From contig JAAYHH010000011.1 of NCBI GenBank assembly GCA_012735435.1, positions 14,141-78,140 of the forward strand: a DNA stretch of 64,000 nucleotides, read 5' to 3'. This document shows, piece by piece, positions 1,956 to 60,927 of this stretch. How positions within the stretch are numbered: position 1 is the stretch's first letter; each line of letters opens with the position of its first letter. The notes under the pieces are model-generated. The model saw only the letters and a program-made list of their open reading frames with translations. It was not told the DNA's origin and ran no database searches. The stretch is from Bacillota bacterium (GTDB taxonomy: Bacteria; Bacillota; Limnochordia; DTU087). A program made the position numbers and the translations under genes.

Positions 1956-1992
1956 GGATTATAGCCCAGACACTCACACATGTGTTTCATCA

Positions 1993-2373: not shown

Positions 2374-2410
2374 CTCCGGAACAGATGTCCTCTAGAACGG
2401 ATGTCCGTGA

Positions 2411-2424
2411 CGAACATATGTGCT
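2411..2424. promoter_or_regulatory. LexA (Cheo-type) SOS box CGAACATATGTGCT in the yneA/lexA divergent region
   Basis: matches the Gram-positive LexA consensus CGAAC-N4-GTTCG with one mismatch; lies between divergent lexA and the LysM gene. Confidence 0.55.
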
Positions 2425-2439
2425 ATCTATAGAGTAACA

Positions 2440-2454
2440 CGAACAACTGTTTCG
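2440..2454. promoter_or_regulatory. second LexA/Cheo-like box CGAACAACTGTTTCG
   Basis: GAAC-N4-GTTT imperfect palindrome ~30 bp from the first box, upstream of lexA. Confidence 0.45.
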
Positions 2455-2579
2455 GTCAAGACAAAAAATGGTATAAAGACGAACGGGCGTTTGCAAAGCC
2501 GTTAATCCCTGTGTTATAATGGAAAAGACTAACGCTGGAACGGATTTTTCAGGTAACTGCCTTGGGAGGGGGCCAGCTC

Positions 2580-17119: not shown

Positions 17120-19831
17120 CTATTTCTCCTTACGCAGGCGAGCTTGCCACTCAACAAGTCGATTGAGAGCTTCAAAGGGCGTCATGTGGGTTAGCTCTGC
17201 TGTTTCGATCTCCCTCAGGATCTCAGCTTCCAAGCTGCTTCCCTCCAGCACGTCCTGTGAAGCTGCCAGCTCTTCCTGAAGCTCCAAGTGGGATGAGCGG
17301 TCTGCAGCCCCCTTTGCTGCCATTTCCTTGCTATTATCAGTTCCACGGTCTTCTTGGTCCGCTCCGGTCAAAAAGAACCCATCCAGTCTCAGCTGCTTGT
17401 ACGGCTGTTCAGGCTCCAGATCCTTTAGAACCGACTTTGCCCTTTCCAAAACGCCCTTGGGAAGTCCAGCCAAGCGGGCAACATGAATACCGTAACTTCG
17501 GTCCGCTGCGCCCTCTGCTACCTTGTAGAGGAAGACGACTTCCTTCCCATCCTCCCAGACTTCCATCCTCAGATTCTTGATCCTGGGTCTAGTCAAAGCC
17601 AGTTTTGCCAGCTCGTGGTAATGGGTTGAAAAAATCGTTCTGGCCTTAGTGACATCGTGGATATATTCAGCAATGGCCTGGGCGAGGGCCATGCCGTCAT
17701 AGGTGGAAGTGCCTCTTCCAAGCTCGTCGATGATAATCAAAGAACGGGGTGTGGCTTGACTGAGAGCGATATTCACTTCACTCATTTCCACCATAAAGGT
17801 ACTTTGTCCGGTACCAAGATCATCGGCTGCCCCTACCCTGGTGAAGATCCGGTCAACAAGGCCGATTTGGGCCTTATCAGCCGGTACAAAGGAGCCCATC
17901 TGAGCCATCAAGGTGATCAAGGCCACCATGCGTAAGTAAGTGCTCTTTCCAGCCATATTGGGACCGGTTAGGATTAGCAGCTGGGCTGTTTCATCATCTA
18001 GATAAACATCATTGGGAACAAACTGACCTTGGGGAAGCATTGCTTCCACCACCGGGTGCCGGCCTGCCTTAATATCGATGGACTTATCCTCCCGGATTTC
18101 CGGCCGGCAGTAGCGGCGCCGTACAGCTACCTCTCCAAGGGCCGCCAGGACATCCAACTGGCTGAGGACCCCTGCCAGACGCAAGAGCCGGGAAGCAGCC
18201 CCGTTTACCTGATCACGGATTTCGAGGAAGAGTTCGTACTCAAGCTGAATAGCCCGTTCCTCAGCTCCCAAGATGAGATTTTCCTTCTCCTTCAGCTCCG
18301 GGGTAATATACCGCTCGGAATTGGCCAGAGTCTGCTTTCGCTGGTAATGGTCAGGGACACTGGCTAGATTAGCCTTGGTCACTTCGATGTAATAGCCGAA
18401 CACTTTATTGAAACCGACCTTTAGGCTCTTAATGCCGGTTCTTTCCCGCTCAGCCGCCTCCAAAGCCGCTATCCAATCCTTGCCTTCCCGGGCGGCGGCC
18501 CGCAGCTGATCCAGCTCCTCGCAGTATCCCGGCCGGATGAGGCCGCCATCCCGCACCACGGCTGGAGGCGAATCCACCAAACTCTTCTGTAAAAGCTCAG
18601 CAAGTTCCGGCAGTGGATCTAGACTTTGGGCTAGTTCCTTCAATCTCGGTGCCTTGGCGGCAGCCACTGTTTGGTTTAGATCGGGGATTTTCAAAAGGGA
18701 CCTGCCCAAAGCCACTAGATCTCGGGGATTGGCGCTGCCGTAGGTTATCCGGCCTACTAGTCTCTCCAGATCGTAGATCCCCGACAGCTGCTCCCTCAGT
18801 CTAGTACGCATGGGGGTATCTTTGACCAATTCTTCAACAGCATCCAGCCGCTCTGTAATCTCCTCTTTATCCAGCCTGGGCTGCAGCACCCACTGGCGAA
18901 GCAGCCTGCCCCCCATAGCGGTGACGGTTTCATCCAGGAGCCAAAGTAAAGACCCTTTGTATTCACCATCCCGCAGTGTCTGGGTCAGCTCTAGATTGCG
19001 GCGGGTGGCCGTTTCCATCAGCATGTAGCTTTCCACCGAGTAAACGTTGACGGTAGTAATATGGCTCAGTACCCGCCTCTGGGTATCATTGAGATAAGAC
19101 AGCAGGGCGCCTCCGGCTCGAACAGCAGCGGCAGCATCGTCTAGACCAAAGGAGCTGAGGGATTTGATCCCGAAATGCCGAAGCAGCACTTCACTGGCGT
19201 AGGCATACCGCCAGCCTCGCTCTTCATATGGAGACAGCGTACAGTCGAGGCGTCTAACCGCCTCAGCTTTCCAGCTGGGCTCAGCATCTAAAGAGGGATC
19301 CAAGAGGCATTCTGCCGGAGCCAAACGTTCCAGCTCGTTCCAGAGCTTGTCCTCTGCCCCTGCACCCTGTATTTCTGTCACGGCAAAGTAGCCGGTAGAA
19401 ACATCCACCACCGCTAACCCGTAATATTTCTGATGGCGGCAGACAGCGGTTAAGTAGTTGTTGGCCTTATCATCCAGGAGTTGAGGTTCAATGACGGTTC
19501 CCGGTGTAACTACTCTCACTACTTCCCGTTTCACTACACCTTTGGCCGTCTTAGGGTCTTCTACCTGTTCGCAGATGGCTACCTTGTAGCCGGCCCGCAC
19601 CAGTGCCGCCAAATATCCTTCCACAGCGTGATAAGGCACACCGCACATGGGCAGCTCTTTTCCTTTTCCCATTTCCCGACTGGTTAAGGCAATATCTAAA
19701 ACCCGGGAACCGATCTCTGCATCGGCACCGAACATTTCATAAAAGTCTCCCAGGCGAAAAAGGAGCAGCGCATCTTGATGCTGCTGCTTGATGGAATAGT
19801 ACTGCCTGAGCATCGGTGTGAGATTCTCCAT
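17120..19831 (-). CDS. mutS: DNA mismatch repair protein MutS
   Basis: TPMLRQYYSIKQQHQDALLLFRLGDFYEMF mismatch-binding domain; Walker A GPNMAGKST; start at MENLTP. Confidence 0.95.
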   Translation of the reverse strand: MENLTPMLRQYYSIKQQHQDALLLFRLGDFYEMFGADAEIGSRVLDIALTSREMGKGKELPMCGVPYHAVEGYLAALVRAGYKVAICEQVEDPKTAKGVVKREVVRVVTPGTVIEPQLLDDKANNYLTAVCRHQKYYGLAVVDVSTGYFAVTEIQGAGAEDKLWNELERLAPAECLLDPSLDAEPSWKAEAVRRLDCTLSPYEERGWRYAYASEVLLRHFGIKSLSSFGLDDAAAAVRAGGALLSYLNDTQRRVLSHITTVNVYSVESYMLMETATRRNLELTQTLRDGEYKGSLLWLLDETVTAMGGRLLRQWVLQPRLDKEEITERLDAVEELVKDTPMRTRLREQLSGIYDLERLVGRITYGSANPRDLVALGRSLLKIPDLNQTVAAAKAPRLKELAQSLDPLPELAELLQKSLVDSPPAVVRDGGLIRPGYCEELDQLRAAAREGKDWIAALEAAERERTGIKSLKVGFNKVFGYYIEVTKANLASVPDHYQRKQTLANSERYITPELKEKENLILGAEERAIQLEYELFLEIRDQVNGAASRLLRLAGVLSQLDVLAALGEVAVRRRYCRPEIREDKSIDIKAGRHPVVEAMLPQGQFVPNDVYLDDETAQLLILTGPNMAGKSTYLRMVALITLMAQMGSFVPADKAQIGLVDRIFTRVGAADDLGTGQSTFMVEMSEVNIALSQATPRSLIIIDELGRGTSTYDGMALAQAIAEYIHDVTKARTIFSTHYHELAKLALTRPRIKNLRMEVWEDGKEVVFLYKVAEGAADRSYGIHVARLAGLPKGVLERAKSVLKDLEPEQPYKQLRLDGFFLTGADQEDRGTDNSKEMAAKGAADRSSHLELQEELAASQDVLEGSSLEAEILREIETAELTHMTPFEALNRLVEWQARLRKEK

Positions 19832-20038
19832 TGTTATCGGTCCCCCTCCCAAGATAGTGCTTCTGCAACGGTTCTGACGGCTCCTGCCCCGCTGAGCCGG
19901 CTTGCAGCAAAGAAAAATGCCTTGAGAGTTAATGTCTCAAGGCCGGTTTATCACTGTATGGGCCTTTCGTGGCCTTTAAGATACTGTAATCCTTCGGTGC
20001 TCAAGAGAGGCATCGTCAGCAGTCAGGGCTGCGCCCCT

Positions 20039-26017: not shown

Positions 26018-27574
26018 TTAGTTTACAAACCCGATAATCAACGCCAGTACCGCTGCAATGGTTGCGATATTGGCGGCACTCTTAAGACTCTGATTCTGCT
26101 TCTCAGCATGGGTTCGGTAGCTGTCAAACTCATCCCGCAGCTCCTGCAGCTGCCGCTCCAGCCGCTGTTCCCGCATTAGGGCTGCATTGATCTGGGCAGA
26201 TGATTGTGTAATCACCCGCTCATCAACGGCTGCCAGGGCAGACTCTGTGGCGCTTACCCGCTCCTGCAGTATAGAAACAGCTGCCTGCAGCTCTTCAACG
26301 TAATCCTGCAGATCTGCAAGATCCTTGCTGTCAGCTGCTGCACCCTGCTGCAAGATATTGGTCCTCTTGTCTAAGGCAGCGATCTTCTGAGAAATATTTA
26401 CAAGGTCTGTCTGGACTGCCTCCAAACTCCTAACCAGGTCTTGACGCAGACCGCTGACATCCTTCATCAATTGCCCATCCGCGGCAGCCATAGCTTCTCC
26501 CTGTTTCAAGACTTGATCCTGGAGCGCCTGCACATCTTCGGCAAGTGCAGCCGTCTCCTCAGAGCGGGCAAGTCTTTCCTCCGCTACAGCCTGCTGCAGC
26601 TGTCCAATTTCAGCGGTTAGCTGATCATCCCTCTGGGCGGATTCTTCTTGCCAGCTGCTCAGCTCTTGCTCCATTTGGACAAGCTGCTGGACAACCTCAG
26701 ACAGGCCCTTTTCCACCCGACTGATCTCTTCTGCCAGTTCAGCATCGGCCTCTTGCATGGCGTTCTGCAGTAAGCTTAAAGCCGCATCCCGTTCCGCAAA
26801 GCTGCTCTGGACCTTTACACCCAAAGCCTCCTCCAGCGCTACTAGTGAGTCAGTGTGGAGTGCCAGCATCCGGGTGTGCTCATCTAACCTTGCTTCATTG
26901 GCTTCAACAGCGGCCTCGGTATCGGCCAGGGCTGCTGCCTGTTTGACAAGCTCATCCTCAAGGGCTTGAAGCTTACGGCCCTGGTCAGCAGCCTGCTGCC
27001 TAAGGTCTGCATCAGCAGCTTCGAGGCGCCGGGTGGTATCGGCAACCTGCTGCTGGAGGGCGGCAATTTCCGCCAATATGGCTGCTGCCTGCTCCTGTAT
27101 AGAGGTGCGGATAGCTGCATCTTCCTGCTCCATTGTGTCGATGACCTTAGTCACAGTCTCATCCATTACCTGAACACGACGCTGGGTTTCGGTAACGGAA
27201 GCTGACAGCTCTTCCCTTTGATTATACCACCGTACAAGTTCATCCCTAAACTCGGTAGAAAGTGTCCGGAGCAGTTCCAAATCCTCCTGAGTTACACCCA
27301 GCTGCCCTTTTTCGATGTCCACTAGGAGCCGGCCAACTACTGAAGCCAGCGTATACCTATCGACAGGTCTCTGACCTTGAAAAGTTCCATCGGTATAGAG
27401 AGCAAGATAACCTTCCTGGACTAACTTTTGAACACCCTCATAGGCCCAATGGTCTGCAGGCACATCGCTGATCTGCTGTGCAGTCTGCTGGGCAAAAACA
27501 AGATTCCCCTGACCTACCAACAGCAGCAAAAACAGTAGTACAACTCCTATTCTTCGAATTGTCCTCGACTCCAT
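26018..27574 (-). CDS. SLH-domain protein with long coiled-coil and C-terminal membrane anchor
   Basis: signal peptide; SLH motif DVPADHWAYEGVQKLVQEGYLALYTDGTFQGQRPVDRYTLASVVGRLL; ~380 aa of Q/A/E/L-rich heptad-like sequence; C-terminal hydrophobic helix NIATIAAVLALIIGFVN. Confidence 0.7.
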   Translation of the reverse strand: MESRTIRRIGVVLLFLLLLVGQGNLVFAQQTAQQISDVPADHWAYEGVQKLVQEGYLALYTDGTFQGQRPVDRYTLASVVGRLLVDIEKGQLGVTQEDLELLRTLSTEFRDELVRWYNQREELSASVTETQRRVQVMDETVTKVIDTMEQEDAAIRTSIQEQAAAILAEIAALQQQVADTTRRLEAADADLRQQAADQGRKLQALEDELVKQAAALADTEAAVEANEARLDEHTRMLALHTDSLVALEEALGVKVQSSFAERDAALSLLQNAMQEADAELAEEISRVEKGLSEVVQQLVQMEQELSSWQEESAQRDDQLTAEIGQLQQAVAEERLARSEETAALAEDVQALQDQVLKQGEAMAAADGQLMKDVSGLRQDLVRSLEAVQTDLVNISQKIAALDKRTNILQQGAAADSKDLADLQDYVEELQAAVSILQERVSATESALAAVDERVITQSSAQINAALMREQRLERQLQELRDEFDSYRTHAEKQNQSLKSAANIATIAAVLALIIGFVN

Positions 27575-27630
27575 TTCCTCCCGCCCCCTGTCAATCTTCT
27601 TTGCTCCTCAGTGTTTTCCCAGCACCTTTG

Positions 27631-29664
27631 TTACCTGGCAACAGTAACCGGCAGTTCCATGGGTCCCAATTCGATCACCTGTCCACTGGTGGTGGTCAGC
27701 TTGGTACCCAGCAGCTGGATGACACCGGTGCCTTCAGCGCCTGCCACAAACCGGATTGAACACAGGTTACCTGTCAATCGACTGGGTCCCAGCTGTGAAA
27801 GCCCCCGGAGTTTCACCTGGATAATGCCCTGTGACGGCTGCAGCTCCACCTCCATCGGAGCGGCATCTCCCACGGCAGCCGATAGAGGTGCCAGGACCTC
27901 GCCCCGCTCTACTCCAAGGCGGCCGCCGGCTACCCGCATCAGGTCCACTGGAAACTTAAGCAAGAACTCTGCCTCTTCGATGTTCTTCAGATTATAGCCC
28001 CTTATGGCCGTCTTCATAGGCCCTCCCACAACAGCGGGGCCTGTCCCCTCTGCGATGAGTCTGATCATTTGGGGAAGCTGCGGTATGCTGATAAATTCAT
28101 TTACAATCAGCGGTTCGGTGGCACCGGACTCCACCCTCACCGAATAGGGCAGGCTGTCACTGGCCACATCGGTTGGGGTTAAGAACCACTGAACCACAAT
28201 GGACTCCTGTGGACCGAGATCTCCGCAGAGTTTAGTCCGCCCCTCACCAGGGGCCAGCTGAAGCCCCAAGGGTGCCTGCCATTGGGCATGAACCCACGGT
28301 GCATTCATTTCACCGACATTGGTGATGGTGGCCCTAACGGCAAAGGGTACCGGCTGCAGACTTCCATCTTCAACTAAGAGACGGGGCGGTGCGGAGATTT
28401 TCACCTGCAGTTCGGCAGGTTTGGCGATCCTAACTTGCCGCCGCACCCGGTTGGGCTCACTGTTGGCAGCTTCAACCTTTACTTCGTAGCTGATTTCACC
28501 TCTAATATGGTCAGCCACTTCCACTTGCCAGGCCAGCTGTACTGACTCTCCCACTTCCAAATTACCCAGGCTGCCGCCGGCCTCCTGTCCAGGAACCAGG
28601 GACAAGCCGCTGGGCAGTTCAATGGCTATCCTAACATCCCTAGCCTCACCTTCGCCGCTGTTCTCCAGATAGGCGACAATCGGGAACCTTGTCGGTCCGT
28701 CGGGGGCGTGGGAGACTACAGCAGGTGATGTGACTCCCAAGGAAAGCTTTCCGGGAGCAATGGTTATACCGCCAAGCCCGTAGTAAGTTACCCAAGTAAC
28801 GCTCTCGCCGGGACCGAGGGTGACCGGATCCCAAAACATAGCAATCGCCGAATCCAGCTCAAATTCACCCTTCCGGAGGAAAATGCGGCCAGGGTCAAAA
28901 TCAAAATCCCAGATGCTCTCTGCCAAAGCTCCCCAGTTGCTGAAGTACACCCGATCAGGCGGGGTTACCCCTGAACCCCGCAGGGTTCCCTGGGACATAA
29001 CCTGGGGATCGGCCAGGGAGTCGAATGCCTGCCAAAACTCCGGTATAGCTCCTCCGGTAAACAATGTATCGGTAGTAACAGCCTGCTGCTCTACCCTAAA
29101 GGGGGCACCGTCATTGGCGCCCAACATAGTATCCAGCATAAGCCGCATGGCTACGCTGTGGGAAACAGAATCCTCATTGGTCAAAGTATAGGCAATCCGG
29201 GCTGTATCTTGCAGACCAGTGGTGCTGCTTCGGGTAAAGCTGAGGATCTGCTCCGCTTTCACCGGCCCTAGTTTATATACAGTGCTGATGGCATTTCCCT
29301 GGATAACTTCGGGTCCTGAGATCAGCTCCCCGAATGGTCCTTGTCTTCCAGCGGAGGTCTGTGTCGGACCGCCAAATACATAGTTGCGACCGTCTATTTG
29401 GATCGTGGTGTAAGAAGTCCAAGGATCGGCCATGCCGTAAACTAAGGGTTTGTTTTCATCACCGATCCGGTCAGGATCTCCGCCGGTGGTGTTGATGGAG
29501 AACCGGCCGGTGTTTTCTTCGCCTCCGTTGACAATGATGGAAATGTATTCATTGGCGACAATGATATTGCTGCCGACGTTACCTTCGACCATAGCCCGGG
29601 CCTTCTCTACTTCACAGCTAATCAACATGACCGCAGCCAGGGCAATTGCCAACCAGCGCCGCAT
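27631..29664 (-). CDS. large secreted protein with beta-sandwich (CARDB/DUF11-like) repeats and cohesin-like C-terminal domain
   Basis: 677 aa; signal peptide MRRWLAIALAAVMLISC; repeated G.S..L.W.VEV-type beta-sandwich segments; no catalytic motif recognised. Confidence 0.5.
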   Translation of the reverse strand: MRRWLAIALAAVMLISCEVEKARAMVEGNVGSNIIVANEYISIIVNGGEENTGRFSINTTGGDPDRIGDENKPLVYGMADPWTSYTTIQIDGRNYVFGGPTQTSAGRQGPFGELISGPEVIQGNAISTVYKLGPVKAEQILSFTRSSTTGLQDTARIAYTLTNEDSVSHSVAMRLMLDTMLGANDGAPFRVEQQAVTTDTLFTGGAIPEFWQAFDSLADPQVMSQGTLRGSGVTPPDRVYFSNWGALAESIWDFDFDPGRIFLRKGEFELDSAIAMFWDPVTLGPGESVTWVTYYGLGGITIAPGKLSLGVTSPAVVSHAPDGPTRFPIVAYLENSGEGEARDVRIAIELPSGLSLVPGQEAGGSLGNLEVGESVQLAWQVEVADHIRGEISYEVKVEAANSEPNRVRRQVRIAKPAELQVKISAPPRLLVEDGSLQPVPFAVRATITNVGEMNAPWVHAQWQAPLGLQLAPGEGRTKLCGDLGPQESIVVQWFLTPTDVASDSLPYSVRVESGATEPLIVNEFISIPQLPQMIRLIAEGTGPAVVGGPMKTAIRGYNLKNIEEAEFLLKFPVDLMRVAGGRLGVERGEVLAPLSAAVGDAAPMEVELQPSQGIIQVKLRGLSQLGPSRLTGNLCSIRFVAGAEGTGVIQLLGTKLTTTSGQVIELGPMELPVTVAR

Positions 29665-29720
29665 TAATCACCAGCCCCCTAACTGTAGTATCGTTTCATT
29701 GGCGATCTATCGAGGAGCCA

Positions 29721-30647
29721 CTACTCGTTCCGGACATACCTGACACCATCGTAAAGAATCGATACCCTAAACTCCGGCGGACCGCTGAAGGAGACAGTTA
29801 CCGTCAGAATATAATCCTCCAGCAGCGGCTCCATTCGCCATCCGTTCTGGATAGTTAAGCTTGCTACCTGGTCTAGGCTTGCTGCCCCGGAAGACTGGAT
29901 GATGTCAATCCGGGTTGCTCTAGTAGACCCCTTGGGGACATAGGCATCCAGCTTCACAGTGCCTGCCAAGCCCTCGTTAATTGCATTCTTGGGGTACTGA
30001 ATCCGGCCACCGCCTGCTACCAGAGTGCTTGCCGCCGGCAGTGGAGGCAGTGGCGGTGGCGAAGGTGGTGTCGGTTCTGCCTCTTCATCGCTTTCTGTCT
30101 CGGATGAAGAACCGCCTGGTTCGCCGGCAGGGGCAGAATCGCCTCCAGCCATGACAGCATCTTGACCTTGCTCGCTGGTCAGGATTTGCTCCCCATTGCT
30201 GTCAGGCTGCGATAGAGCCTCTTCACTGGCTGCCGGATCCGGCTCAGGTTCAGGCTCAGGCACTACCCTGGTGTCAGGAGTCTTAACTTCCTCTTGGGGA
30301 GCCGGGGTCGTCTCCTGCGGCTTTGGTGCTGGCTCCGGTTCAGTCTTGGTTACCTCGGCCTTGGCAGTTTCAACCGGTTCCGGTTCTTCCTTCGGTGGCG
30401 TGGGTTCCTGACGACGGGGAGTTTGCTGCTGCGGCTGCTGCCTGACCGCTTGGGTTCTAGGCGCTGGCTGCTGGACCTCTACGGGTACAACAGAAATAAT
30501 ACCGCCGCCAGGACCTGCAAAAAGGCCGGGTCCAACCGCAAATTCCCAGCGGGGAAAGACAAAGAACAGCATTGCGTGAAGGATAAGCGAAATCAAGACA
30601 AAGGCTCCAAAGGAGCGGTCTGACTCATCTCCTGTATACATTGCCAC
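29721..30647 (-). CDS. TonB-like energy transducer (N-terminal TM, Pro/Glu-rich linker, TonB C-terminal domain)
   Basis: TM FGAFVLISLILHAMLFFVF; PEPEPEPDP/PKPQ linker; C-terminus GGRIQYPKNAINEGLAGTVKLDAYV...IDIIQSSGAASLDQVASLTIQNGWRMEP matches the TonB-C fold. Confidence 0.75.
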   Translation of the reverse strand: MAMYTGDESDRSFGAFVLISLILHAMLFFVFPRWEFAVGPGLFAGPGGGIISVVPVEVQQPAPRTQAVRQQPQQQTPRRQEPTPPKEEPEPVETAKAEVTKTEPEPAPKPQETTPAPQEEVKTPDTRVVPEPEPEPDPAASEEALSQPDSNGEQILTSEQGQDAVMAGGDSAPAGEPGGSSSETESDEEAEPTPPSPPPLPPLPAASTLVAGGGRIQYPKNAINEGLAGTVKLDAYVPKGSTRATRIDIIQSSGAASLDQVASLTIQNGWRMEPLLEDYILTVTVSFSGPPEFRVSILYDGVRYVRNE

Positions 30648-30691
30648 ACCACCTCCCCTCGGATTTGGCTGACGCCAAAGGGTGTACCATG

Positions 30692-31105
30692 CTACCTGCC
30701 CCGGGGTTCAACTGCAAGGCCAAAGCGATATCCTCCCAGCTGCCGAACAACATCCATTACTTGAACTATATAATCATAGCGAGCCTCCCGGTCAGCTTTA
30801 ATGACGACAAAAAGGTCCGGCCTTTTCTCCAATGCTTTGCCGACCTCTGACCTTAGAGTATTACTACTGACCTGACGCTCACCCAAGAACATCCGTCCAT
30901 CTTTAGCTACAGAAATGGTGATCTGGCTGCTGGCTTGTCTGTCCCAACTTGCCGCCTTGGGCAGTTCAAGATTCAATCCTGCTGGATGGGTCTTAAAGGT
31001 CGTAGCCAGCATGAAGAACACCAAAACAGAAAAAATAATATCAACCAGCGGCACTATTTGAATCGTTGGCTTTTTGTTGCGGACAGAGCGGCGGGCTATC
31101 ATCAC
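30692..31105 (-). CDS. exbD: biopolymer transport protein ExbD/TolR
   Basis: 137 aa; IQIVPLVDIIFSVLVFFM N-terminal TM typical of ExbD/TolR; 4-nt overlap with exbB. Confidence 0.8.
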   Translation of the reverse strand: MMIARRSVRNKKPTIQIVPLVDIIFSVLVFFMLATTFKTHPAGLNLELPKAASWDRQASSQITISVAKDGRMFLGERQVSSNTLRSEVGKALEKRPDLFVVIKADREARYDYIVQVMDVVRQLGGYRFGLAVEPRGR

Positions 31106-31743
31106 ACATCACCCCTCGCCTCAAAGATGGCCAACAGCTCCGAAGAGCGTTTGTTGATATCAACCACTAGGCGGTCGATTAATCCCGAAAGGTAAGAATA
31201 AATCAGAGTACCCGGAATGGCGATTACTAAGCCGGTTGCAGTTGTAATTAGGGCTTCTGCAATTCCTGTGCTTAAGGCAAGGGTATCATCTAAGCCGCCA
31301 ACCGCTGAAATCACTTGAAAACTATTGATAATACCTGTTACTGTACCTAAGAGACCAAGCAACGGTGCAGCGGTGATGATTGCATCGAGAAGTCCCAGCC
31401 GGCGTTCCATACGGAAGACCTCTTCATAGGCCACTTCTTCCAAGCGCTCTCGGATAAACTGCTTGTCCTTATCATAATGGGCTATCCCCGCCGCCAGTAC
31501 AGCCGCAACCGGGCCTCTGGTTTTCTTTGCTATCTGGATAGCTTCCAGGATTTTGCCTTGCTGAAGAGCCAGTTTAATGTCATCCATCAAATCCTCTGTA
31601 TCTACTCGACAGCGAAGCAAGTAGACCAGCCTTTCGAGAGAGACAGCTACCATCAATACAGAGCAAAGCAGCAACGGGATCATTACCGGGCCGCCCCGAA
31701 TGATCAAATCCAGCATTCTATATACCTCCACTCCGTCCCACAT
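31102..31743 (-). CDS. exbB: MotA/TolQ/ExbB proton-channel protein
   Basis: 213 aa; three TM helices; LLGLLGTVTGIINSFQVI and TTATGLVIAIPGTLIY ExbB/TolQ signatures. Confidence 0.8.
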   Translation of the reverse strand: MWDGVEVYRMLDLIIRGGPVMIPLLLCSVLMVAVSLERLVYLLRCRVDTEDLMDDIKLALQQGKILEAIQIAKKTRGPVAAVLAAGIAHYDKDKQFIRERLEEVAYEEVFRMERRLGLLDAIITAAPLLGLLGTVTGIINSFQVISAVGGLDDTLALSTGIAEALITTATGLVIAIPGTLIYSYLSGLIDRLVVDINKRSSELLAIFEARGDV

Positions 31744-52375: not shown

Positions 52376-54139
52376 TCATTCATCGAATTCCCAACGCAAA
52401 TCGGCCAAGTCCTTGAGAGTCTTCTTGTCTTTACCCTGCTGCTTGTTGTCTTCTTCACTCTCATCCTGGAACTTAACTTTGAGGTCATCCAACCGTCCCG
52501 CAAGGGTAAAACCGCTCTCATCATCCTCAGGTCCTGCAACATACTCAGAAATTTCCACTTCGTCCTGCTGCTGATCTCCGGAAAACAAAGTGGGCAGCGG
52601 TTCTTCTTCAATTAGTTCTTCCTCAAGCAGAGATTCTAGATCCTGTTTGCGGGTCTTGCGGCTCCTTGCCTTACCCAGCCCGGCGGCCGGTTTGGGCGTC
52701 CGCCTCCGCCAGAGGGTATCTTCATCCAATTCGGTTTCTATCTCCTCGGGCTCTTCATCCAGCTCATCGACGTCATCATCTAGAGCTGCCTGCTCCAAGG
52801 GTTCTGATTCGTCATCGGCATAAACCGAGAGCTCTTCTTCGTGCTCTTCCTCCAGCGGCAGTTCCTCGAGATAGTCGGATTCATCAGCTTCCTCTGGAGC
52901 AGTTTCCTCATCCAATTCCTGCTCATCGTCAGCTGCCGTCAGCTCACCATCCTCACTGACTGTATCGCCTTCTTCAAGTTCACTATCCGCTGCAACTACT
53001 GCCGCAAGGTCTTCATCTTGAGCCGTTAGGTCTTCCTCGCCGGAGACCTCGTCAATCTCCTCGTCCTTAGGTGTTGCCCGTTCAAAGGCTTCCTTGGCCA
53101 GGATCTGGGCCATTTGCTCCTGGCTCTTGATATCTATTCTCCATCCGGTAAGCCGTGCCGCCAGCCTGGCGTTTTGTCCTTCTTTCCCGATGGCCAGGGA
53201 CAGATGATTGTCCGGCACCACGGCTCTAGCCGTTTTGGTCGATTCATCCAGGTAGGTCTTAACTACATGGGCTGGGCTCAGGGCATTGGCTACAAACTCT
53301 TCTTCTATTGGCGCCCAGGGGATAATGTCAATCTTTTCACCCCGCAGCTCCGATACAACAGCCTGGACCCGCATGCCCCTTGGACCTACACATGCGCCCA
53401 CAGGATCGACATTTGGGTCCCGAGAATAAACTGCTATCTTGGTGCGGGCGCCGGCTTCCCTGGCCACTGCCTTGATCTCCACTGTTCCATCGTAGATTTC
53501 TGGAACTTCCATTTCAAACAAGCGCAGCACCAGGCCCGGATGTGTTCGGGAGACTGCTATATGGGGTCCCTTGCCGGTTTGTCGAACTTCGCTGATGTAG
53601 ACCTTGATTCTGGTCCCCTGGGTGAGCGGTTCGCCCGGCATTTGATCAGACGGGGCCAAAACCGCCTCTGCCTTGCCCAGGTCAATAATCACATTGCGGT
53701 TTTCCCTGCGCTGAACAATGCCGGTGACGACGTCTCCTTCCCTATTCTTAAATTCATCATAGATGAGCGCCCTCTCGGCTTCCCGAATCCTCTGGATAAC
53801 CACCTGTTTGGCAGTTTGAGCAGCTATGCGGCCGAAATCCTCGGGGGTTACCTCTACATCGACGACATCATCCAGCTTGTAGTTGGGGTCCATAGCCTGG
53901 GCTTCCTGCAAACTGATCTGCAGGGAATCATCGGTTACTTCGTCAACTACAACCTTGCGGGCGTAGACATTGATTTCCCCCGTGTTTTCATCAACTTCTA
54001 CCCTCACGTTTTGGGCTGTCCCATAGTTGCGCTTATAAGCCGTAGTGATGGCAGCCTCTATGGCTTCTAATATGATTTCTTTAGTAATTCCCCGCTCTTT
54101 TTCCAACTCGTTAAGAGCGCTCATCACTTCGAAGTTCAT
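52376..54139 (-). CDS. nusA: transcription termination/antitermination factor NusA with long acidic C-terminal extension
   Basis: N-terminal domain, S1 and KH1/KH2 (IGKEGQNARLAARLTGWRIDI); ~230-aa E/D-rich low-complexity C-terminus. Confidence 0.9.
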   Translation of the reverse strand: MNFEVMSALNELEKERGITKEIILEAIEAAITTAYKRNYGTAQNVRVEVDENTGEINVYARKVVVDEVTDDSLQISLQEAQAMDPNYKLDDVVDVEVTPEDFGRIAAQTAKQVVIQRIREAERALIYDEFKNREGDVVTGIVQRRENRNVIIDLGKAEAVLAPSDQMPGEPLTQGTRIKVYISEVRQTGKGPHIAVSRTHPGLVLRLFEMEVPEIYDGTVEIKAVAREAGARTKIAVYSRDPNVDPVGACVGPRGMRVQAVVSELRGEKIDIIPWAPIEEEFVANALSPAHVVKTYLDESTKTARAVVPDNHLSLAIGKEGQNARLAARLTGWRIDIKSQEQMAQILAKEAFERATPKDEEIDEVSGEEDLTAQDEDLAAVVAADSELEEGDTVSEDGELTAADDEQELDEETAPEEADESDYLEELPLEEEHEEELSVYADDESEPLEQAALDDDVDELDEEPEEIETELDEDTLWRRRTPKPAAGLGKARSRKTRKQDLESLLEEELIEEEPLPTLFSGDQQQDEVEISEYVAGPEDDESGFTLAGRLDDLKVKFQDESEEDNKQQGKDKKTLKDLADLRWEFDE

Positions 54140-54161: not shown

Positions 54162-54626
54162 CTAAAACTCGATAGCCAGGTTGGCCTTTGCTACCTGGTC
54201 CCGAGGAATCCTAGTAATTTCGCCTCCGGATTCAACTACCACAGCGCCATCTTCCAATCCCACAAGCTTTCCTTCCCATACCTTCTTACCCTGATAGGGA
54301 GCATAGGTCTTGATATGTACCAATCGTCCCGCAAACCTGGTAAAGTGTTCATCACGGGTGAGAGGCCTTTCCAGACCGGGTGAAGATACCTCCAGGGAAT
54401 AGCTGCCGGGAATGGGATCGACTTCATCCAGCCGCGAGCTGAGGCGGCGGCTTACCTTCTCACAATCATCCAGCCCAACTCCGCCTTCTTTGTCGATGAA
54501 CACCCTCAAGATCCAGTCAGGGCCTTCCTTGGTATATTCAACGTCAACTAATTCCAGCTCTGGGTAGTCGGTTAAAATCTCCTCTGTCAGCTGAGTAGTT
54601 ATCCGCTCTATCTCTTGTCGAGCCAT
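54162..54626 (-). CDS. rimP: ribosome maturation factor RimP
   Basis: LELVDVEY...ILRVFIDKEGGVGLDDCEKVSR RimP signature. Confidence 0.9.
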   Translation of the reverse strand: MARQEIERITTQLTEEILTDYPELELVDVEYTKEGPDWILRVFIDKEGGVGLDDCEKVSRRLSSRLDEVDPIPGSYSLEVSSPGLERPLTRDEHFTRFAGRLVHIKTYAPYQGKKVWEGKLVGLEDGAVVVESGGEITRIPRDQVAKANLAIEF

Positions 54627-54944: not shown

Positions 54945-57900
54945 TTAGAAAAGTGACAGCTGGGAGGTTTTGGGAAGCCCGGCTAGTGCTCCGTGGGCAC
55001 CTAGGGTTTCAATGACCGTTCGACTGACGCCGCACCTCATCCTGATATCCTCCCATGATGCAAAGGGTCCCTCTTCCCTGCCCTGGGCCAGCATCAGGGC
55101 TGCCCCTTCCCCTACTCCCGGTACAATTGCCAGGGGCGGCCTCAGCTCTTCCCCTTCGATCACAAAGCGGTTGGGATGGGACTTGTATATGTCAACGGTA
55201 TGAAAATCTATTCCCCGGAGCATGGCCTCCATAACGACTTCAGCCACTGTCAGCAGACTTTTCTCTTTAGCAGTGGCGCTGCCGCCTTTGGCGGAAATGG
55301 AATGGATGATCTCCTTTACACCTGCAAGGCCGCCCGTGATCAGCTGAACCTCGAAGGTATTAACCCGGGTAGAAAAATAGGCAGCGTAATAGGCCAGGGG
55401 ATAATGTACCTTAAAGTACGCTATCCGGAAGGCCATGGTCACATATGCCACTGCATGGGCCTTGGGGAATAGGTAGCTGATCTTTTTGCAGGAGTCGATG
55501 TACCACTGGGGGACTCCTACTTTTTCCATGGCCTCAACGTCTTCAGGTCTTAATCCCCTTCCCTTCCGGACCCTTTCCATGATTACGAAGGCGGTCTCTG
55601 GTTCCATCCCCTTTTGAATAAGGTAATTCATGATGTCATCCCGGGTGGCGATGGCCTGGCTAAGGTCAGCAGTTCCGTTCTTGATCAACTCTTGAGCATT
55701 ATTGGTCCAGACATTGGTTCCATGGGAAAACCCGCTGATACGCACCAGTTCTCCAAAGGACTTGGGCCGGGTTTCCTCAAGCATCTGCCGGACAAAACGG
55801 GTGCCGAACTCAGGAACGCCCAAAGTCCCAACGGTAGTGCCAAGATCATCGGGGCTTATCCCTAAGGCCTCCACACTGGAGAAGATGCTCATGGTAGCAG
55901 GGTCATCAAGCGGTATATCCAGGACCGGCACTCCAGTCATATCCTCCAGCATCCGGAGCATTGTGGGATCGTCATGGCCGAGAATATCCAATTTCACCAG
56001 GTTGTCGCTGATGGCATTGTAATCAAAATGGGTAGTGATGGTGCCGCTGGCAGCATCATTGGCCGGGTACTGTACCGGTGAAAACTCGTTGATATCCCGG
56101 CCTTCGGGAACCACAATCATGCCGCCGGGGTGCTGGCCGGTGGTACGCCGCACTCCAGTACAGCCCTTGACCAGCCGGTTGATTTCAGCGGTTCTGGCAG
56201 TTTGCCCTTTGCTTTCTAAGTATTTGCACACAAAGCCGTAGCTGGTCTTCTCCGCCAGTGTGCCGATGGTGCCCGCCCGGAACACGTATTCTTTGCCGAA
56301 AAGCTCCTCTGTGTACTTATGAACACAGGCCTGATATTCCCCGGAAAAATTGAGATCTATATCAGGCACCTTTTCCCCGTGAAAGCCCATGAAAACCTCA
56401 AAGGGGATATCAAAGCCCAATTTTCGGTATTGTGTACCGCATTGACAGTGCTTGTCTGGCAGGTCGATACCAGTTTGTACTGAACCATCGGTAATAAATT
56501 CCGCATGGTGGCACTGGGGACAAACATAATGGGGCGGCAGGGGATTTACCTCGGTCACCCCGCAGAGGGTAGCCACCAGTGATGAGCCCACAGAACCCCG
56601 GGAACCTACCAGATAACCATCGCTGAGGGATTTTTTTACCAGCTTGTGGGCAATCAGATAGAGAACAGCAAATCCGTTGCCGACAATGGCATTTAGTTCC
56701 TTCTCAATCCGCTCCTTGACCAGCGGGGGCAGCGGATCACCATACAGCTTCCGGGCGTTGGCATAGGTCATCTCGGTGATCTGCTCTTCAGCTCCTTCGA
56801 TCTTGGGGGCATGCAGGCCGTCGGGGATGGGCCGCAGCTCTTCGATCATTTCCGCGATGCGATTGGGCCCGTGGATCACCACTTCCCTGGCAGTCTCTTC
56901 ATCGAGATACGCGAACTCCGCCAGCATTTCCTCAGTTGTCCGGAAAAACAAAGGTGCCTGCCTTTCAGCATCTTCATATCCTTGACCGGCCATCAGGATG
57001 CGGCGGTAGATTTCATCCCATGGATGCAGGTAGTGGACATCGCAGGTAGCCACCACCGGTTTTCCCAGACGCTCTCCTAGAGCAACAATACCCCGGTTGA
57101 TCTCCTCTAGGTCTTCTTGTGACTGGACTTTATCACCGATCATGAAGGCATTGTTGCCCAACGGCTGGATTTCCAGGTAATCATAGAAATCGGCTATTTT
57201 CATCAGCCGTTCTTCATCGCTGCCTTGCAGGAAAGCTTGGTACACTTCACCAGCTTCACATGCGGAACCGATGATGAGACCCTCTCGATACTTCTCAATC
57301 AATCGGCGGGGCAGACGGGGCCGGCGGTAGAAATACTTTAGATGGGATAGGGATACCAGTCTATACAGGTTGTGCAGGCCCTGCTGATTTCTAGCCAAAA
57401 GTACTATGTGATAGGAGGGAGCCCTGGGGTCATCCCCATCGATGAGATACCCTTCCATCCCGTAAATTATCTTGATGCCGGCCTTCTTGCCGGCGAAGTA
57501 AGCCTCGGGAAAAGCTTGGACGACGCCGTGATCCGTGATGGCAACTGCCTTGTGGCCCCAGCTTGCTGCCAATTGGATAATCTCTCCGACATCGACAGTT
57601 CCGTCCATAGCAGACATCTTGGTATGAAGATGCAGCTCAACCCGCTTTTCAGGGGCCTCATCCCGCCGAACAAATTCAGCGAGGGGCTCCTGGATCTCTA
57701 TGTCGTTGGGCAGCATAGTGAGCTCCTGGGTATAGCGATCCCACTGGACGGAGCCCCTCACCCGCAGCCAGACGCCCGGGCTGAGTTCCGGTGCCAGCCG
57801 GGGAGCATCTTCATCTTCGAAAAGCTTAAGGGTAATAGAATCGCGATAGTCGGTGAGGTCGATCATTACCAAGCGCCGACCGCTCCGGAGTTCCTTTTCC

Positions 57901-58433
57901 TCGACCTTGATGATTTCACCGGCAGTGACGTAGGAACGCTCTTCGTCGGTGATCTCAGCTATAGAACGGGGTTCCTCCCGGATAGACCGTCCCTTCAATA
58001 CGCCCCTTGAGCCTTTCTTGGCAGAGACTTCAGTTTGCTTGGGCGGGGGATCTTCGATGGCTTGGCGACTAGCCCGTTCCATTACATATGACATATAGGT
58101 AGCTTCGTCGGCAAGGAGGAGATCACTGATCGGAGGTTCAAGAGACTTGTGGTTTTCGCCAACAGCTACGTCAAAGGAAACTGACCGCACCCCTGGCAGA
58201 AATTTCACCAGGGCTTGACTTAAGGTGTCCAATTCTCGGCGACACAGTTCCCCTCCAGCTGCTAAACAGATTTTCCACTCCTGGCGTTGGCAGTGAACCA
58301 AGATTCTTTCTACAACAGCTCGGGCGGCTGTTCCTTCACAGCTTACTGGAAGTTGAGCCGCCCGCAGGAAATCTGATAGGGATTGCCCTTTGGTTCGGGG
58401 AGTTACTACATATACAGTTGCATTACCAGCCAC
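54945..58433 (-). CDS. polC: DNA polymerase III PolC-type lacking the 3'-5' exonuclease domain
   Basis: OB domain, PHP (RVELHLHTKMSAMDG), Zn-finger (CPQCHHAEF...CQCGT), palm/fingers (DIDLNFSGEY, GQHPGGMIVVP, ILGHDDPT, KAHAVAYV), C-terminal SQLSLF clamp-binding tail; PHP is continuous (IIYGMEGYLIDGDDPRAPSYHIVLLARNQ) where B. subtilis PolC carries a ~200-aa DEDDh exonuclease insert; total 1162 aa. Confidence 0.9.
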   Translation of the reverse strand: MAGNATVYVVTPRTKGQSLSDFLRAAQLPVSCEGTAARAVVERILVHCQRQEWKICLAAGGELCRRELDTLSQALVKFLPGVRSVSFDVAVGENHKSLEPPISDLLLADEATYMSYVMERASRQAIEDPPPKQTEVSAKKGSRGVLKGRSIREEPRSIAEITDEERSYVTAGEIIKVEEKELRSGRRLVMIDLTDYRDSITLKLFEDEDAPRLAPELSPGVWLRVRGSVQWDRYTQELTMLPNDIEIQEPLAEFVRRDEAPEKRVELHLHTKMSAMDGTVDVGEIIQLAASWGHKAVAITDHGVVQAFPEAYFAGKKAGIKIIYGMEGYLIDGDDPRAPSYHIVLLARNQQGLHNLYRLVSLSHLKYFYRRPRLPRRLIEKYREGLIIGSACEAGEVYQAFLQGSDEERLMKIADFYDYLEIQPLGNNAFMIGDKVQSQEDLEEINRGIVALGERLGKPVVATCDVHYLHPWDEIYRRILMAGQGYEDAERQAPLFFRTTEEMLAEFAYLDEETAREVVIHGPNRIAEMIEELRPIPDGLHAPKIEGAEEQITEMTYANARKLYGDPLPPLVKERIEKELNAIVGNGFAVLYLIAHKLVKKSLSDGYLVGSRGSVGSSLVATLCGVTEVNPLPPHYVCPQCHHAEFITDGSVQTGIDLPDKHCQCGTQYRKLGFDIPFEVFMGFHGEKVPDIDLNFSGEYQACVHKYTEELFGKEYVFRAGTIGTLAEKTSYGFVCKYLESKGQTARTAEINRLVKGCTGVRRTTGQHPGGMIVVPEGRDINEFSPVQYPANDAASGTITTHFDYNAISDNLVKLDILGHDDPTMLRMLEDMTGVPVLDIPLDDPATMSIFSSVEALGISPDDLGTTVGTLGVPEFGTRFVRQMLEETRPKSFGELVRISGFSHGTNVWTNNAQELIKNGTADLSQAIATRDDIMNYLIQKGMEPETAFVIMERVRKGRGLRPEDVEAMEKVGVPQWYIDSCKKISYLFPKAHAVAYVTMAFRIAYFKVHYPLAYYAAYFSTRVNTFEVQLITGGLAGVKEIIHSISAKGGSATAKEKSLLTVAEVVMEAMLRGIDFHTVDIYKSHPNRFVIEGEELRPPLAIVPGVGEGAALMLAQGREEGPFASWEDIRMRCGVSRTVIETLGAHGALAGLPKTSQLSLF

Positions 58434-58464: not shown

Positions 58465-59133
58465 TTACTTAGGTCCCAAAACTTTTATAATCTCCCAGTA
58501 CATCTTGAGACGGTTTCGTGCCCCTGGAATAAATCCTTGCTTTTCCTCTTTCATGACGTGGGACACATCTTTAAGCAGTACCTTTTCCACTCGAATGCCA
58601 TTGGCAGCCACATACTTGGAGATGGCTACTTCTACGCCGTACCGGCTATCTTCCAGCTGGGGGATGTCCTCGAGGATCTCCCGGCGGATAGCTCTCTGGC
58701 CCGAGAGAAAAGGCGTTATCTTCTGGGCTATAGTAGTCGGCGCCCGTCCGCCTGCAAATATCCCCACAGTCATATCTGTCCTGCCGGAAACCACCGGCTC
58801 CAGCAGGTCGTAACAGTGGGCTTCAGTGAGCCCAACTAAGTCTGCATCTACAAACAGCAATATGTCGGCTGAGGTTGCCTTGGCCCCAGCCTTCATCGCG
58901 CCGCCCTTGCCCCGGTTGGGATAGAGACTGATCACCCTTGCTCCGAGGCTGCTGGCCACTTGAGCAGTACGATCCGATGACCCATCATTGACCACGATCA
59001 CTTCATCGATGGCCTTGCACCTTTGCAGCACCTGGAGTATACTGCCGATGGTATATTCCTCGTTGTAAGCAGGAACCACGGCAGCAACCTTAGGCTTACT
59101 TGCTGCTATTTCTCCGCTACTGCGTGCGCACAC
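58465..59133 (-). CDS. family 2 glycosyltransferase (Dpm1/DPG-synthase-like)
   Basis: VVPAYNEE...VVNDGSSD...DAD GT2 motifs; probable GTG start at 59133 (RBS GGAG), overlapping the proS stop by 15 nt; the ORF-track start is 59175. Confidence 0.7.
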   Translation of the reverse strand: MCARSSGEIAASKPKVAAVVPAYNEEYTIGSILQVLQRCKAIDEVIVVNDGSSDRTAQVASSLGARVISLYPNRGKGGAMKAGAKATSADILLFVDADLVGLTEAHCYDLLEPVVSGRTDMTVGIFAGGRAPTTIAQKITPFLSGQRAIRREILEDIPQLEDSRYGVEVAISKYVAANGIRVEKVLLKDVSHVMKEEKQGFIPGARNRLKMYWEIIKVLGPK

Positions 59134-60847
59134 ACTCGGACTCCGCGATGGCTCTTGTGATTCGGTCTTGAACATGACTCACCACTTCATTCAATGAGAT
59201 CAAATACTCTTCACCGGTGGCCCGCCAGCGGATTTCAACTTGTCCATCCGCCAAGCCCCGGGGCCCGACGGTAATCCTAAGGGGAAATCCAATTAAGTCA
59301 GCATCCTTGAACTTCACACCTGGACGTTCATCTCTATCGTCGATAACCGCTTCTACTCCTGCTTTGGTAAGCTCCCGGTAAATCCTCTCCGCTGTGGTTC
59401 TCTGCTGTTCATCCCGATAACTAACCGGAACAATATCTACATGATAAGGTGCAACACTGATGGGCCAGCATATACCGTCATCATCATGGCACTGCTCGAT
59501 GATGGCTGCCATTGTCCGGCTGATTCCGATGCCGTAGCAGCCCATGATCAGCGGCCGCTCGACACCATCTTCGTCGGTAAATGTGGCACCCAACGGCTCG
59601 CTGTATTTGGTTCCCAATTTGAAAACCTGTCCAACCTCAATACCTCTAGCACCCTGCAGAACGCCCTTGCCGCATGGGCATGGGTCACCGGGCTGGGCCT
59701 TGCGGATATCGACAACTTTATCTGGTACAAAATCCCGTCCCGGCTTAACACCCTGGAGGTGAACATCTACTGCATTGCCGCCCGCGATGCCGCCTTCTAT
59801 GGCCATCACCGCCGGATCAGTGATAATCTTGCAGTGCTTTAAGCCTATGGGTCCGGCAAATCCCCGGGGAGCTCCAGTCACCTCTTCGATGGTCTTATCG
59901 TCGGCAAGCTCAACCTCGAGGCAGCCAATTGCCCTGGCCAGCTTGATTTCATTCACCTCATGGTCTCCCCGCAGTACTGCGGCTACCACTTGATCGCCGC
60001 CTCGATAGATCAAAGTTTTTATCATTTCGCTGGCAGGCCGGTTAAAGAACTTCTCCAAATCCTCAATGGTCCTGACATCTGGAGTTGCGACTTCAACCAA
60101 GGGTTCCTCTCGGCCTGTGGGTTCAGCAGGCGGCGTAAGGCATTCGGCCTTCTCAACATTCGCGGCATAATCGCAGCTTGAGCAGTAGACGATTTCCGCT
60201 TCGCCTGCATCGGCTAAAGCCATGAATTCGTGGGTCTGATCTCCGCCAATAGCGCCAGAATCGGCCTCAACCGGCCTGGTAGTAAGGCCGCAGCGGGCGA
60301 AAATTCGCTCATAGGCATGGAACATTGTCCAATAGCTCTTATCCAGACCCTCCTCATCCCGGTCAAAGGAGTAGAGGTCCTTCATAATGAACTCTCTTCC
60401 TCGCATGACTCCAAATCGGGGGCGAATTTCATCTCGGTATTTATTCTGGATCTGATATAACATTAGAGGCAGCTGCCTGTAGGAGCGTACCTCATTCCTG
60501 ACCAACGCAGTTGTGATTTCCTCATGGGTAGGACCTAAACAAAACTGCCGCTCATGGCGATCGATCAGTTTAAACATCTCTTCGCCGTAATCATCCCAGC
60601 GGCCTGTCTCATGCCACAATTCTGCAGGCTGGACAATAGGCAAGAGAACCTCCTGGCCTCCGGCAGCATCCATTTCTTCCCGCACGATCTGCATAATTTT
60701 CTGCAATACCCGGAATCCCAAAGGCAGATAGGAATAAATCCCAGCCGCGACCTTTCGCATCATCGCAGCCCTCAGCATTAATCGGTGGCTTGCGATTTCA
60801 GCTTCTGCAGGAACTTCCCGTAAAGTCGGCATCAACAGCTTCGACAT
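59117..60847 (-). CDS. proS: proline--tRNA ligase
   Basis: class II aaRS motifs; N-terminus LLMPTLREVPAEAEIASHRLMLRA typical of bacterial ProRS, with editing domain; start at MSKLLMP. Confidence 0.95.
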   Translation of the reverse strand: MSKLLMPTLREVPAEAEIASHRLMLRAAMMRKVAAGIYSYLPLGFRVLQKIMQIVREEMDAAGGQEVLLPIVQPAELWHETGRWDDYGEEMFKLIDRHERQFCLGPTHEEITTALVRNEVRSYRQLPLMLYQIQNKYRDEIRPRFGVMRGREFIMKDLYSFDRDEEGLDKSYWTMFHAYERIFARCGLTTRPVEADSGAIGGDQTHEFMALADAGEAEIVYCSSCDYAANVEKAECLTPPAEPTGREEPLVEVATPDVRTIEDLEKFFNRPASEMIKTLIYRGGDQVVAAVLRGDHEVNEIKLARAIGCLEVELADDKTIEEVTGAPRGFAGPIGLKHCKIITDPAVMAIEGGIAGGNAVDVHLQGVKPGRDFVPDKVVDIRKAQPGDPCPCGKGVLQGARGIEVGQVFKLGTKYSEPLGATFTDEDGVERPLIMGCYGIGISRTMAAIIEQCHDDDGICWPISVAPYHVDIVPVSYRDEQQRTTAERIYRELTKAGVEAVIDDRDERPGVKFKDADLIGFPLRITVGPRGLADGQVEIRWRATGEEYLISLNEVVSHVQDRITRAIAESECVRTQ

Positions 60848-60927
60848 TCTCAATTTCAACACCCCCGAAATCAAAACAATTGTAACAGACCGTCAGAATC
60901 CCTGTCAATATCGGGGAAACGGCCCAA

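Follow-up and report, generated by a model that had tools for sequence, protein, structure and literature searches.

An orthologous polC without the DEDDh exonuclease domain in an uncultured Limnochordia-like lineage

The polC gene and its missing domain

The stretch of DNA analysed here (the window) comprises 64,000 nucleotides (nt) of contig JAAYHH010000011.1 (positions 14,141 to 78,140) from assembly GCA_012735435.1, labelled Bacillota bacterium. It contains, in local order, proS, a glycosyltransferase gene, polC, rimP and nusA. The polC gene encodes a PolC-type DNA polymerase III alpha subunit of 1162 amino acids (aa). A preliminary description of the window had claimed that the DEDDh exonuclease domain, which in Firmicute PolC interrupts the PHP domain, is lacking in this protein. 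The gene and its parts, all on the minus strand, are as follows.

54945..58433, minus strand: polC, exonuclease-less PolC-type DNA polymerase III alpha, 1162 aa, from the open reading frame (ORF) and NCBIfam; stop codon at 54945-54947
58164..58421, minus strand: N-terminal module, aa 5-90, from conservation and a structural model (predicted local distance difference test, pLDDT, 78-90)
58008..58160, minus strand: low-confidence linker, aa 92-142, at the place expected for subdomain N-II (pLDDT <50, weak conservation, variable length)
57690..57941, minus strand: OB fold, aa 165-248 (PF01336 at aa 170-247; five strands in the model)
56874..57644, minus strand: PHP domain, aa ~264-520, with a nine-residue metal site (PF02811)
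57411..57443, minus strand: junction loop IDGDDPRAPSY, aa 331-341, in place of the ~200-aa DEDDh insert (alignment with exonuclease-bearing relatives)
56439..56522, minus strand: Zn finger, C638 C641 C663 C665 (cysteines invariant in 121/121 sequences)
55224..56783, minus strand: polymerase core (palm, thumb, fingers) with catalytic D691 D693 D816 (PF07733, PF17657)
54972..55214, minus strand: (HhH)2 domain, aa 1074-1154 (PF14579)
54948..54962, minus strand: C-terminal beta-clamp-binding motif QLSLF, read directly from the sequence

The reading frame starts at a GTG codon and runs for 1162 codons with no internal stop in 54945-58433, so the gene is uninterrupted and free of a frameshift, as the preliminary description had held. 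Its further claim of colinearity with canonical PolC through the OB, PHP, Zn-finger and polymerase-core regions was borne out by Pfam, in which the matches follow one another as OB (aa 170-247), PHP (266-417), DNA_pol3_alpha or palm (551-742), fingers (822-959) and HHH_6 (1074-1154), by the NCBIfam model NF001688 and by alignment to the G. kaustophilus PolC structure 3F2B. Both PolC equivalogs of NCBIfam were passed (NF001688, 1523 bits against a cutoff of 873; TIGR01405, 1405 bits against 1043), whereas the DnaE equivalogs gave 76-258 bits, far below their cutoffs of 434-1806. The OB fold precedes the PHP domain and there is no C-terminal OB fold. This order is PolC-like and not that of DnaE1 or DnaE3, in which PHP comes first and the OB fold and C-terminal domain follow (HhH)2. 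The exonuclease domain is a hallmark of PolC, although not a universal one, and the protein was placed in PolC despite its absence because phylogeny, profile score and synteny all lead there. Its identity as an orthologous polC without the exonuclease is near certain.

The catalytic residues D691, D693 and D816 do not vary in 121 sequences. Over 77 sequences of 55-86% identity, about 190 positions are unchanged, among them the catalytic triad, Q1158 and F1162, and the relatives end most often in Q-[LMI]-x-L-F. An AlphaFold model based on a 77-sequence alignment (mean pLDDT 88.4; predicted template modelling score 0.77) superposes on 3F2B with a template modelling (TM) score of 0.95 and a root-mean-square deviation of 2.5 Å. 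The same structure is the best match among solved ones, at 55% identity and unbroken over aa 153-1162, while the full-length PolC 9QPC aligns to the window protein in two pieces. Judged from these sequence features, the protein should be an active, clamp-tethered C-family polymerase.

The absence of the exonuclease was apparent in each comparison made. Pfam gave no match to RNase_T (PF00929) in the window PolC even at E<=1. The NF001688 match is split in two, the second stretch aligning aa 338-1162 to model positions 612-1444, and about 200 model positions are skipped. In a MAFFT alignment with six exonuclease-bearing relatives (1415-1437 aa), the latter carry 211-212 residues with the Exo I (DLETTG), Exo II (HNAxFD) and Exo III (HRAxDDA) motifs between the motifs YGMEGY and SYHIVLLA; in the window PolC there are only 12 residues between YGMEGY and H342. 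The Exo I-III motifs, which the preliminary description had proposed to look for with an alignment and a hidden Markov model (HMM), are thus absent from the protein, and the two PHP halves are joined by IDGDDPRAPSY at aa 331-341 just as it had stated. In the model the junction forms a beta-hairpin (strands 321-331 and 340-347, block pLDDT 88-98), predicted to end in a tight 8-residue loop without a docking remnant. As read from the sequence, an orthologous polC is here missing the DEDDh domain, cleanly and in frame.

One possibility is that a separate DnaQ-like (epsilon-type) exonuclease binds PolC or the clamp and proofreads in trans, as happens in Pol III of E. coli. Inserted domains are known to have split off as separate subunits in evolution. 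Standalone DnaQ homologues are common, with more than three per bacterial proteome on average (PMC12926913). An Exo HMM was built from the exonuclease domains of the exonuclease-bearing relatives and run on six-frame ORFs of >=50 aa from the window and from 80 related loci. It recovered all 18 exonuclease-bearing PolCs among those 80 loci. In contrast, none of the six-frame ORFs of the 64-kb window gave a match at E<=1, nor did a standalone DEDDh-like ORF turn up within +/-10 kb of polC in the 62 exonuclease-less loci. Pfam likewise revealed no standalone DnaQ-like gene among the 41 of ~59 window ORFs to which it was applied, polC included, the Exo HMM having covered all frames. The predicted hairpin with no trace of a docking surface also speaks against a partner in trans, and a 2026 survey ties standalone DnaQ proofreaders mainly to systems with DnaE1 only (PMC12926913). 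As far as the window and the surroundings of these polC loci show, we regard proofreading by a separate DnaQ-like subunit as improbable.

The N-terminal part of the protein differs from its public record. An identical protein is deposited as NLY51446.1, from a metagenome-assembled genome (MAG) labelled Firmicutes/Bacillota bacterium, with 1049 aa and a beginning at M114. The 1162-aa start is preferred because AAGGA lies 8 nt upstream of the GTG at 58433, aa 1-90 are conserved among relatives down to ~57% identity, and aa 5-90 are confidently folded in the AlphaFold model as a beta-alpha-alpha-beta-beta-alpha-beta module (block pLDDT 78-90). The longer protein is the better call, the start of NLY51446.1 being annotated 113 codons too late, with aa 1-113 (58095-58433, minus strand) trimmed off. 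We take the module at aa 5-90 to be the N-I subdomain. Neither of the Pfam N-terminal domain models PF14480 and PF11490 matches the window PolC, while both match some relatives. The N-terminal domain is indeed shorter, as the preliminary description had claimed: the region before PHP, which begins at aa 264, comprises 264 aa, against 315-338 aa in exonuclease-bearing relatives. With a poorly ordered linker at the place of the second subdomain, the clade of the window PolC seems to lack N-II as well as the exonuclease, only the first of two N-terminal subdomains being kept. The N-terminal domains of PolC are poorly conserved in general (PMC3919608).

Relatives, gene order and the surrounding window

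The exonuclease-less form was found in 113 of the 120 best database matches (114 of 121 with the window protein counted) and at 62 of the 80 best polC loci from GTDB species-representative genomes, the genome of the window not being one of these. Isolates are among the matches, namely Neomoorella thermoacetica (P0084), Moorella sp., Thermanaeromonas (P0077 and P0103) and Thermosinus carboxydivorans (P0083), of which N. thermoacetica, Thermanaeromonas and T. carboxydivorans are 60-62% identical to the window PolC. The closest loci come from anaerobic-digester MAGs, at 91% (L007), 88% (L001) and, in 'Clostridiales bacterium DTU087', 86% identity; the cluster of the 86%-identical protein P0002 holds a member labelled Limnochordia. 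The exonuclease-less form is therefore the majority state among the relatives of the window protein and the usual one for these anaerobic bacteria.

Since the sequence comes from a MAG, and the database entry of the protein is mis-started at 1049 aa, it was considered whether the missing domain might be artefactual and reflect a collapsed assembly, a pseudogene or a second copy in decay. However, the same junction type was seen in 171 of the 199 PolCs compared, from many independent studies and assemblers and with isolates included. The ORF and all catalytic residues are intact, and no remnant of the exonuclease was seen in any frame of the window. The nearest MAGs yielded one polC locus each, with the exception of MAG DAIQRD01, which has two (L004 and L006, at 74% and 71% identity to the query); each of these has its own proS-glycosyltransferase-polC context, and we judged the MAG to be a mixed bin of two related genomes and not a case of paralogy. 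Synteny is conserved as well. The order dxr-rseP-ispG-proS-GT2-polC-rimP-nusA-L7Ae-infB-rbfA is kept in ~45 exonuclease-less loci, down to ~55% PolC identity. Because this gene order is conserved, the exonuclease-less gene is an ortholog at the canonical locus, in agreement with the position next to proS and rimP from which the preliminary description had argued. With a recurrent junction, an intact ORF and conserved synteny, the assembly artefact or pseudogene was rejected, and we consider it effectively refuted.

The neighbours of polC, and two repair genes further away in the window, are listed below.

59117..60874, minus strand: proS, upstream neighbour (Pfam tRNA-synt_2b, tRNA_edit, HGTP_anticodon)
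58465..59175, minus strand: GT2 glycosyltransferase between proS and polC (PF00535)
54162..54626, minus strand: rimP, downstream neighbour (Pfam RimP_N and RimP C-terminal domain)
17120-19852, minus strand: mutS (Pfam MutS domains I-V)
15278-17116, minus strand: mutL (Pfam MutL_C/DNA_mis_repair)

As called, the GT2 gene and the proS ORF share 59 nt; the GT2 gene is kept between proS and polC in ~45 related loci, including two exonuclease-bearing ones (L050 and L070). NusA (52376-54139, minus strand; 587 aa) carries an extremely acidic, D/E-rich C-terminal extension of ~240 aa past its NusA_N, S1 and KH domains.

Other arrangements were seen among the related loci. MAGs of Clostridiaceae, Acetivibrionales and Ruminiclostridium (L040-L043, L045 and L065) hold a separate group of exonuclease-less PolCs of ~1266 aa, with polC at ~9.0-13.5 kb in each locus. 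Here the gene follows hisS-aspS and a signal-peptidase-like gene instead of lying between proS and rimP, and it could have been relocated or be a second copy. Two MAGs labelled 'candidate division FCPU426' (L056, on a 1.6-Mb contig, and L073) have an exonuclease-less polC followed by rimP-nusA-infB-rbfA. PolC is usually described as restricted to Firmicutes, Fusobacteria, Tenericutes and Thermotogae. One locus labelled Proteobacteria (L044) is probably a mis-binned contig.

Elsewhere in the window, homologues of TonB, ExbD and ExbB are encoded beside an SLH-domain protein and a large secreted protein (26018-31743, minus strand). This cluster suggests an outer membrane and hence a diderm member of the Bacillota, which fits the Limnochordia label of close relatives. 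A tyrosine recombinase/integrase gene (317-1453, minus strand), a LysM protein gene and then lexA (2562-3200, plus strand) lie at the start of the window, and this region (317-3200) may mark the boundary of a mobile element. Neither tRNA genes nor Rfam matches were found in the 64-kb window by tRNA and Rfam scans.

Distribution and history of the exonuclease domain

PolCs without the exonuclease have been described before. It was reported by Timinskas, Balvociute, Timinskas and Venclovas (NAR 2014; PMC3919608) that the Exo insert is absent from 6% of PolCs, and that such PolCs occur only in Clostridia and Negativicutes, with one exception in Thermotogae; these are classes that pair PolC with DnaE1. 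The novelty that the preliminary description implied was put too high: the architecture was published in 2013/14, it is present in cultured Moorella, Thermanaeromonas and Thermosinus, and it is the majority state among the relatives. The window protein shares with the PolCs of that survey the arrangement NTD-OB-PHP-Pol3-(HhH)2 without Exo (NTD, N-terminal domain), a Firmicute lineage, the PHP metal site and the clamp motif. It differs from them in its origin, an uncultured digester lineage resembling Limnochordia, which is a class that the survey does not name, and in lacking a recognisable N-II, with PHP from aa 264. What is new here is modest, namely the count of recurrent losses, the invariance of the nine PHP ligands in exonuclease-less PolCs, a Limnochordia-like lineage with a reduced N-terminal domain, and the corrected start.

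Comparison with canonical PolC (B. subtilis, S. aureus and G. kaustophilus; 3F2B, 9QPC) shows both shared and differing features. The OB fold before PHP, the Zn finger, the catalytic triad and the C-terminal QLSLF are shared, whereas the window PolC lacks DEDDh, has a shorter N-terminal domain and keeps nine of nine PHP ligands, against an N at the position of D465 in G. kaustophilus. From the literature, DnaE1 rather than DnaE3 would be the partner polymerase in the lineage of the window; no gene for DnaE1 lies within the 64 kb of the window itself. A man-made counterpart of the junction exists in the engineered deltaN/deltaExo PolC of G. kaustophilus (3F2B/3F2C/3F2D), in which Exo was swapped for a GSGSG linker at the same PHP loop, and on which the model superposes at TM 0.95. 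That construct derives from an organism whose PolC bears the exonuclease, while the deletion in the window arose in nature, is fixed and has been conserved throughout a large clade.

A neighbour-joining tree was built from the 199 PolCs with the Exo columns excluded; the tree is unrooted or midpoint-rooted and its sampling is biased toward the query. On this tree exonuclease-bearing and exonuclease-less PolCs are interleaved. Fitch parsimony required 7 state changes, and 5-9 (mode 7) over 100 bootstrap replicates. The window PolC lies inside the largest exonuclease-less clade, which has 128 leaves. Linkers at the Exo site vary among the exonuclease-less groups from 10 to 36 aa, and reach 82 aa in P0082, where the stretch is of low complexity and rich in Ala, Pro and Asp, possibly a decayed Exo remnant. 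A conserved insert of 35-36 aa occupies the site in three Lachnospiraceae or Clostridia MAGs (L058, L062 and L074). These intermediate inserts, that of P0082 included, may be what is left of the Exo domain or have taken its place.

The changes of state are most simply read as recurrent independent deletion, because repeated re-insertion of the same domain into the same loop is implausible. Alternatively, the exonuclease-less form may be ancestral, and other PolC lineages may have gained the DEDDh insert afterwards. At the insertion site, DnaE-type polymerases carry no more than a short loop (PMC5636811), and an exonuclease-less PolC thus resembles the presumed state before insertion. However, the interleaving of both forms, with 5-9 changes, would call for repeated insertion into one and the same loop, which is far less likely than repeated deletion, and the linkers differ both in length (10 to 82 aa) and in sequence between the groups. 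From the tree, an ancestral exonuclease-less state was judged unlikely, and we consider it very improbable.

The PHP metal site and candidate proofreaders

The nine metal ligands of the PHP site are complete in the window PolC (H268 H270 D301 H302 E327 H342 C392 D465 H467, i.e. HHDHEHCDH, for the signature HHDHEH[C/H]DH). None of them varies among the 199 PolCs compared (171 exonuclease-less, 4 with an intermediate insert and 24 exonuclease-bearing). It was demonstrated previously that this nine-residue site is a trinuclear-zinc exonuclease and the proofreader of DnaE1 in Mycobacterium tuberculosis (Banos-Mateos et al., PMC5636811), and that it is the 3'-5' proofreading exonuclease of T. thermophilus Pol III alpha as well (PMC5636811). 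The window PolC has the same HHDHEHCDH signature as these two enzymes and, like them, no DEDDh in cis. They are of the DnaE type, with the OB fold C-terminal, and their PHP exonuclease is established, whereas that of the window PolC is predicted. With all nine ligands intact, the PHP domain is a plausible fallback proofreader, as the preliminary description had suggested.

Several observations bear on the importance of the site in PolC. Clostridia usually have an 'active' PHP in both PolC and DnaE1 (PMC12926913). The DEDD domain of G. kaustophilus PolC is inserted in a loop beside the PHP site (PMC5636811). In C. thermocellum, which has an exonuclease-bearing PolC together with DnaE1, mutation of a PHP Cys ligand (C669Y) raised the mutation rate 30-178-fold (bioRxiv 10.1101/2021.07.30.454558); C669 is equivalent to C392 of the window PolC. 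The C. thermocellum mutator was rejected as an example of an exonuclease-less PolC, its EXO domain being present, and it gives only indirect support for the importance of PHP.

It seems most likely that proofreading is PHP-based in this protein, since the nine ligands are intact here and in all 199 PolCs. According to this explanation, the DEDDh domain, normally inserted in a PHP loop, would have been cleanly deleted so as to leave a short beta-hairpin. The trinuclear-metal site of PHP would remove mismatches in cis, and its redundancy with DEDDh may have allowed the insert to be lost repeatedly. MutS and MutL would add post-replicative correction. The readings weighed in this text overlap in part, and the likelihoods attached to them are not meant to add up exactly to one. 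We judge the whole package, an orthologous exonuclease-less polC with PHP proofreading in cis and MutS/MutL as backup, to be probable, if by no means secure. For the single step that the PHP site proofreads in the window PolC, which is argued from its ligands and from analogy with DnaE-type enzymes, the chances appear about balanced, perhaps leaning slightly in its favour.

Other observations weigh against a proofreading PHP site. In G. kaustophilus PolC one PHP ligand is mutated and PHP exonuclease activity is reported to be lacking (PMC5636811); the force of this is tempered by the alignment with 3F2B, in which the mutated position, an N, is that of D465. The mutator phenotype of C. thermocellum could stem from structural destabilisation and not from lost PHP catalysis. 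An intact PHP site is kept in exonuclease-bearing Clostridial PolCs too, so its conservation is not specific to exonuclease-less ones. In the literature, we found no biochemical demonstration of PHP exonuclease activity in any PolC.

From the position next to proS, the preliminary description had concluded that this PolC is likely the main replicase, which the window by itself is not enough to support. A different explanation is that a co-resident DnaE1, with an active PHP of its own, is the bulk replicase, and that PolC has become secondary or specialised, with selection on DEDDh relaxed and the domain lost. This possibility was raised by Timinskas et al., who noted, for DnaE1s found alongside PolC, a perfect PHP site together with a clamp motif and a surface for binding epsilon, and who asked whether DnaE1 is the main replicase there; according to them no PolC and DnaE1 system has been characterised experimentally (PMC3919608). 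Some Clostridia have DnaE1 only, and the exonuclease-less PolCs are clostridial (PMC3919608). The 5-9 recurrent losses would fit a dispensable function, and the second N-terminal subdomain also seems to be missing from the window PolC. In contrast, purifying selection on the protein is strong, as seen in the ~190 positions that are invariant over 77 sequences, and polC stays at its canonical housekeeping locus. In C. thermocellum, with both PolC and DnaE1, a single PHP mutation in PolC raised the genome-wide mutation rate at least 30-fold, so that PolC must make a substantial share of the DNA there. A strong strand bias is typical of PolC-using genomes; in the window 55 of the 59 called ORFs are co-oriented on the minus strand, and the GC skew is negative in 31 of 32 2-kb windows. 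Taken together, a DnaE1-led replication with PolC in a minor role appears rather unlikely.

A broader proposal may be put forward, more tentatively and at somewhat under an even chance. In exonuclease-less lineages the PHP site would be the sole proofreader in cis, and DEDDh would be dispensable wherever PHP is intact, as the five or more losses may indicate. In the clade of the window the coupled loss of N-II would leave a minimal PolC, with replisome contacts unlike those of the B. subtilis model.

As a discovery the finding carries little weight, exonuclease-less PolCs having been in the literature since 2013/14 and being present in cultured acetogens. It illustrates a question of the field, namely how labour is split in replisomes with both PolC and DnaE1, and which of up to three candidate proofreaders does the editing. 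The many losses of Exo beside an invariant set of nine PHP ligands make PHP proofreading the obvious hypothesis for such PolCs, for which Moorella thermoacetica would be a more tractable organism than a MAG.

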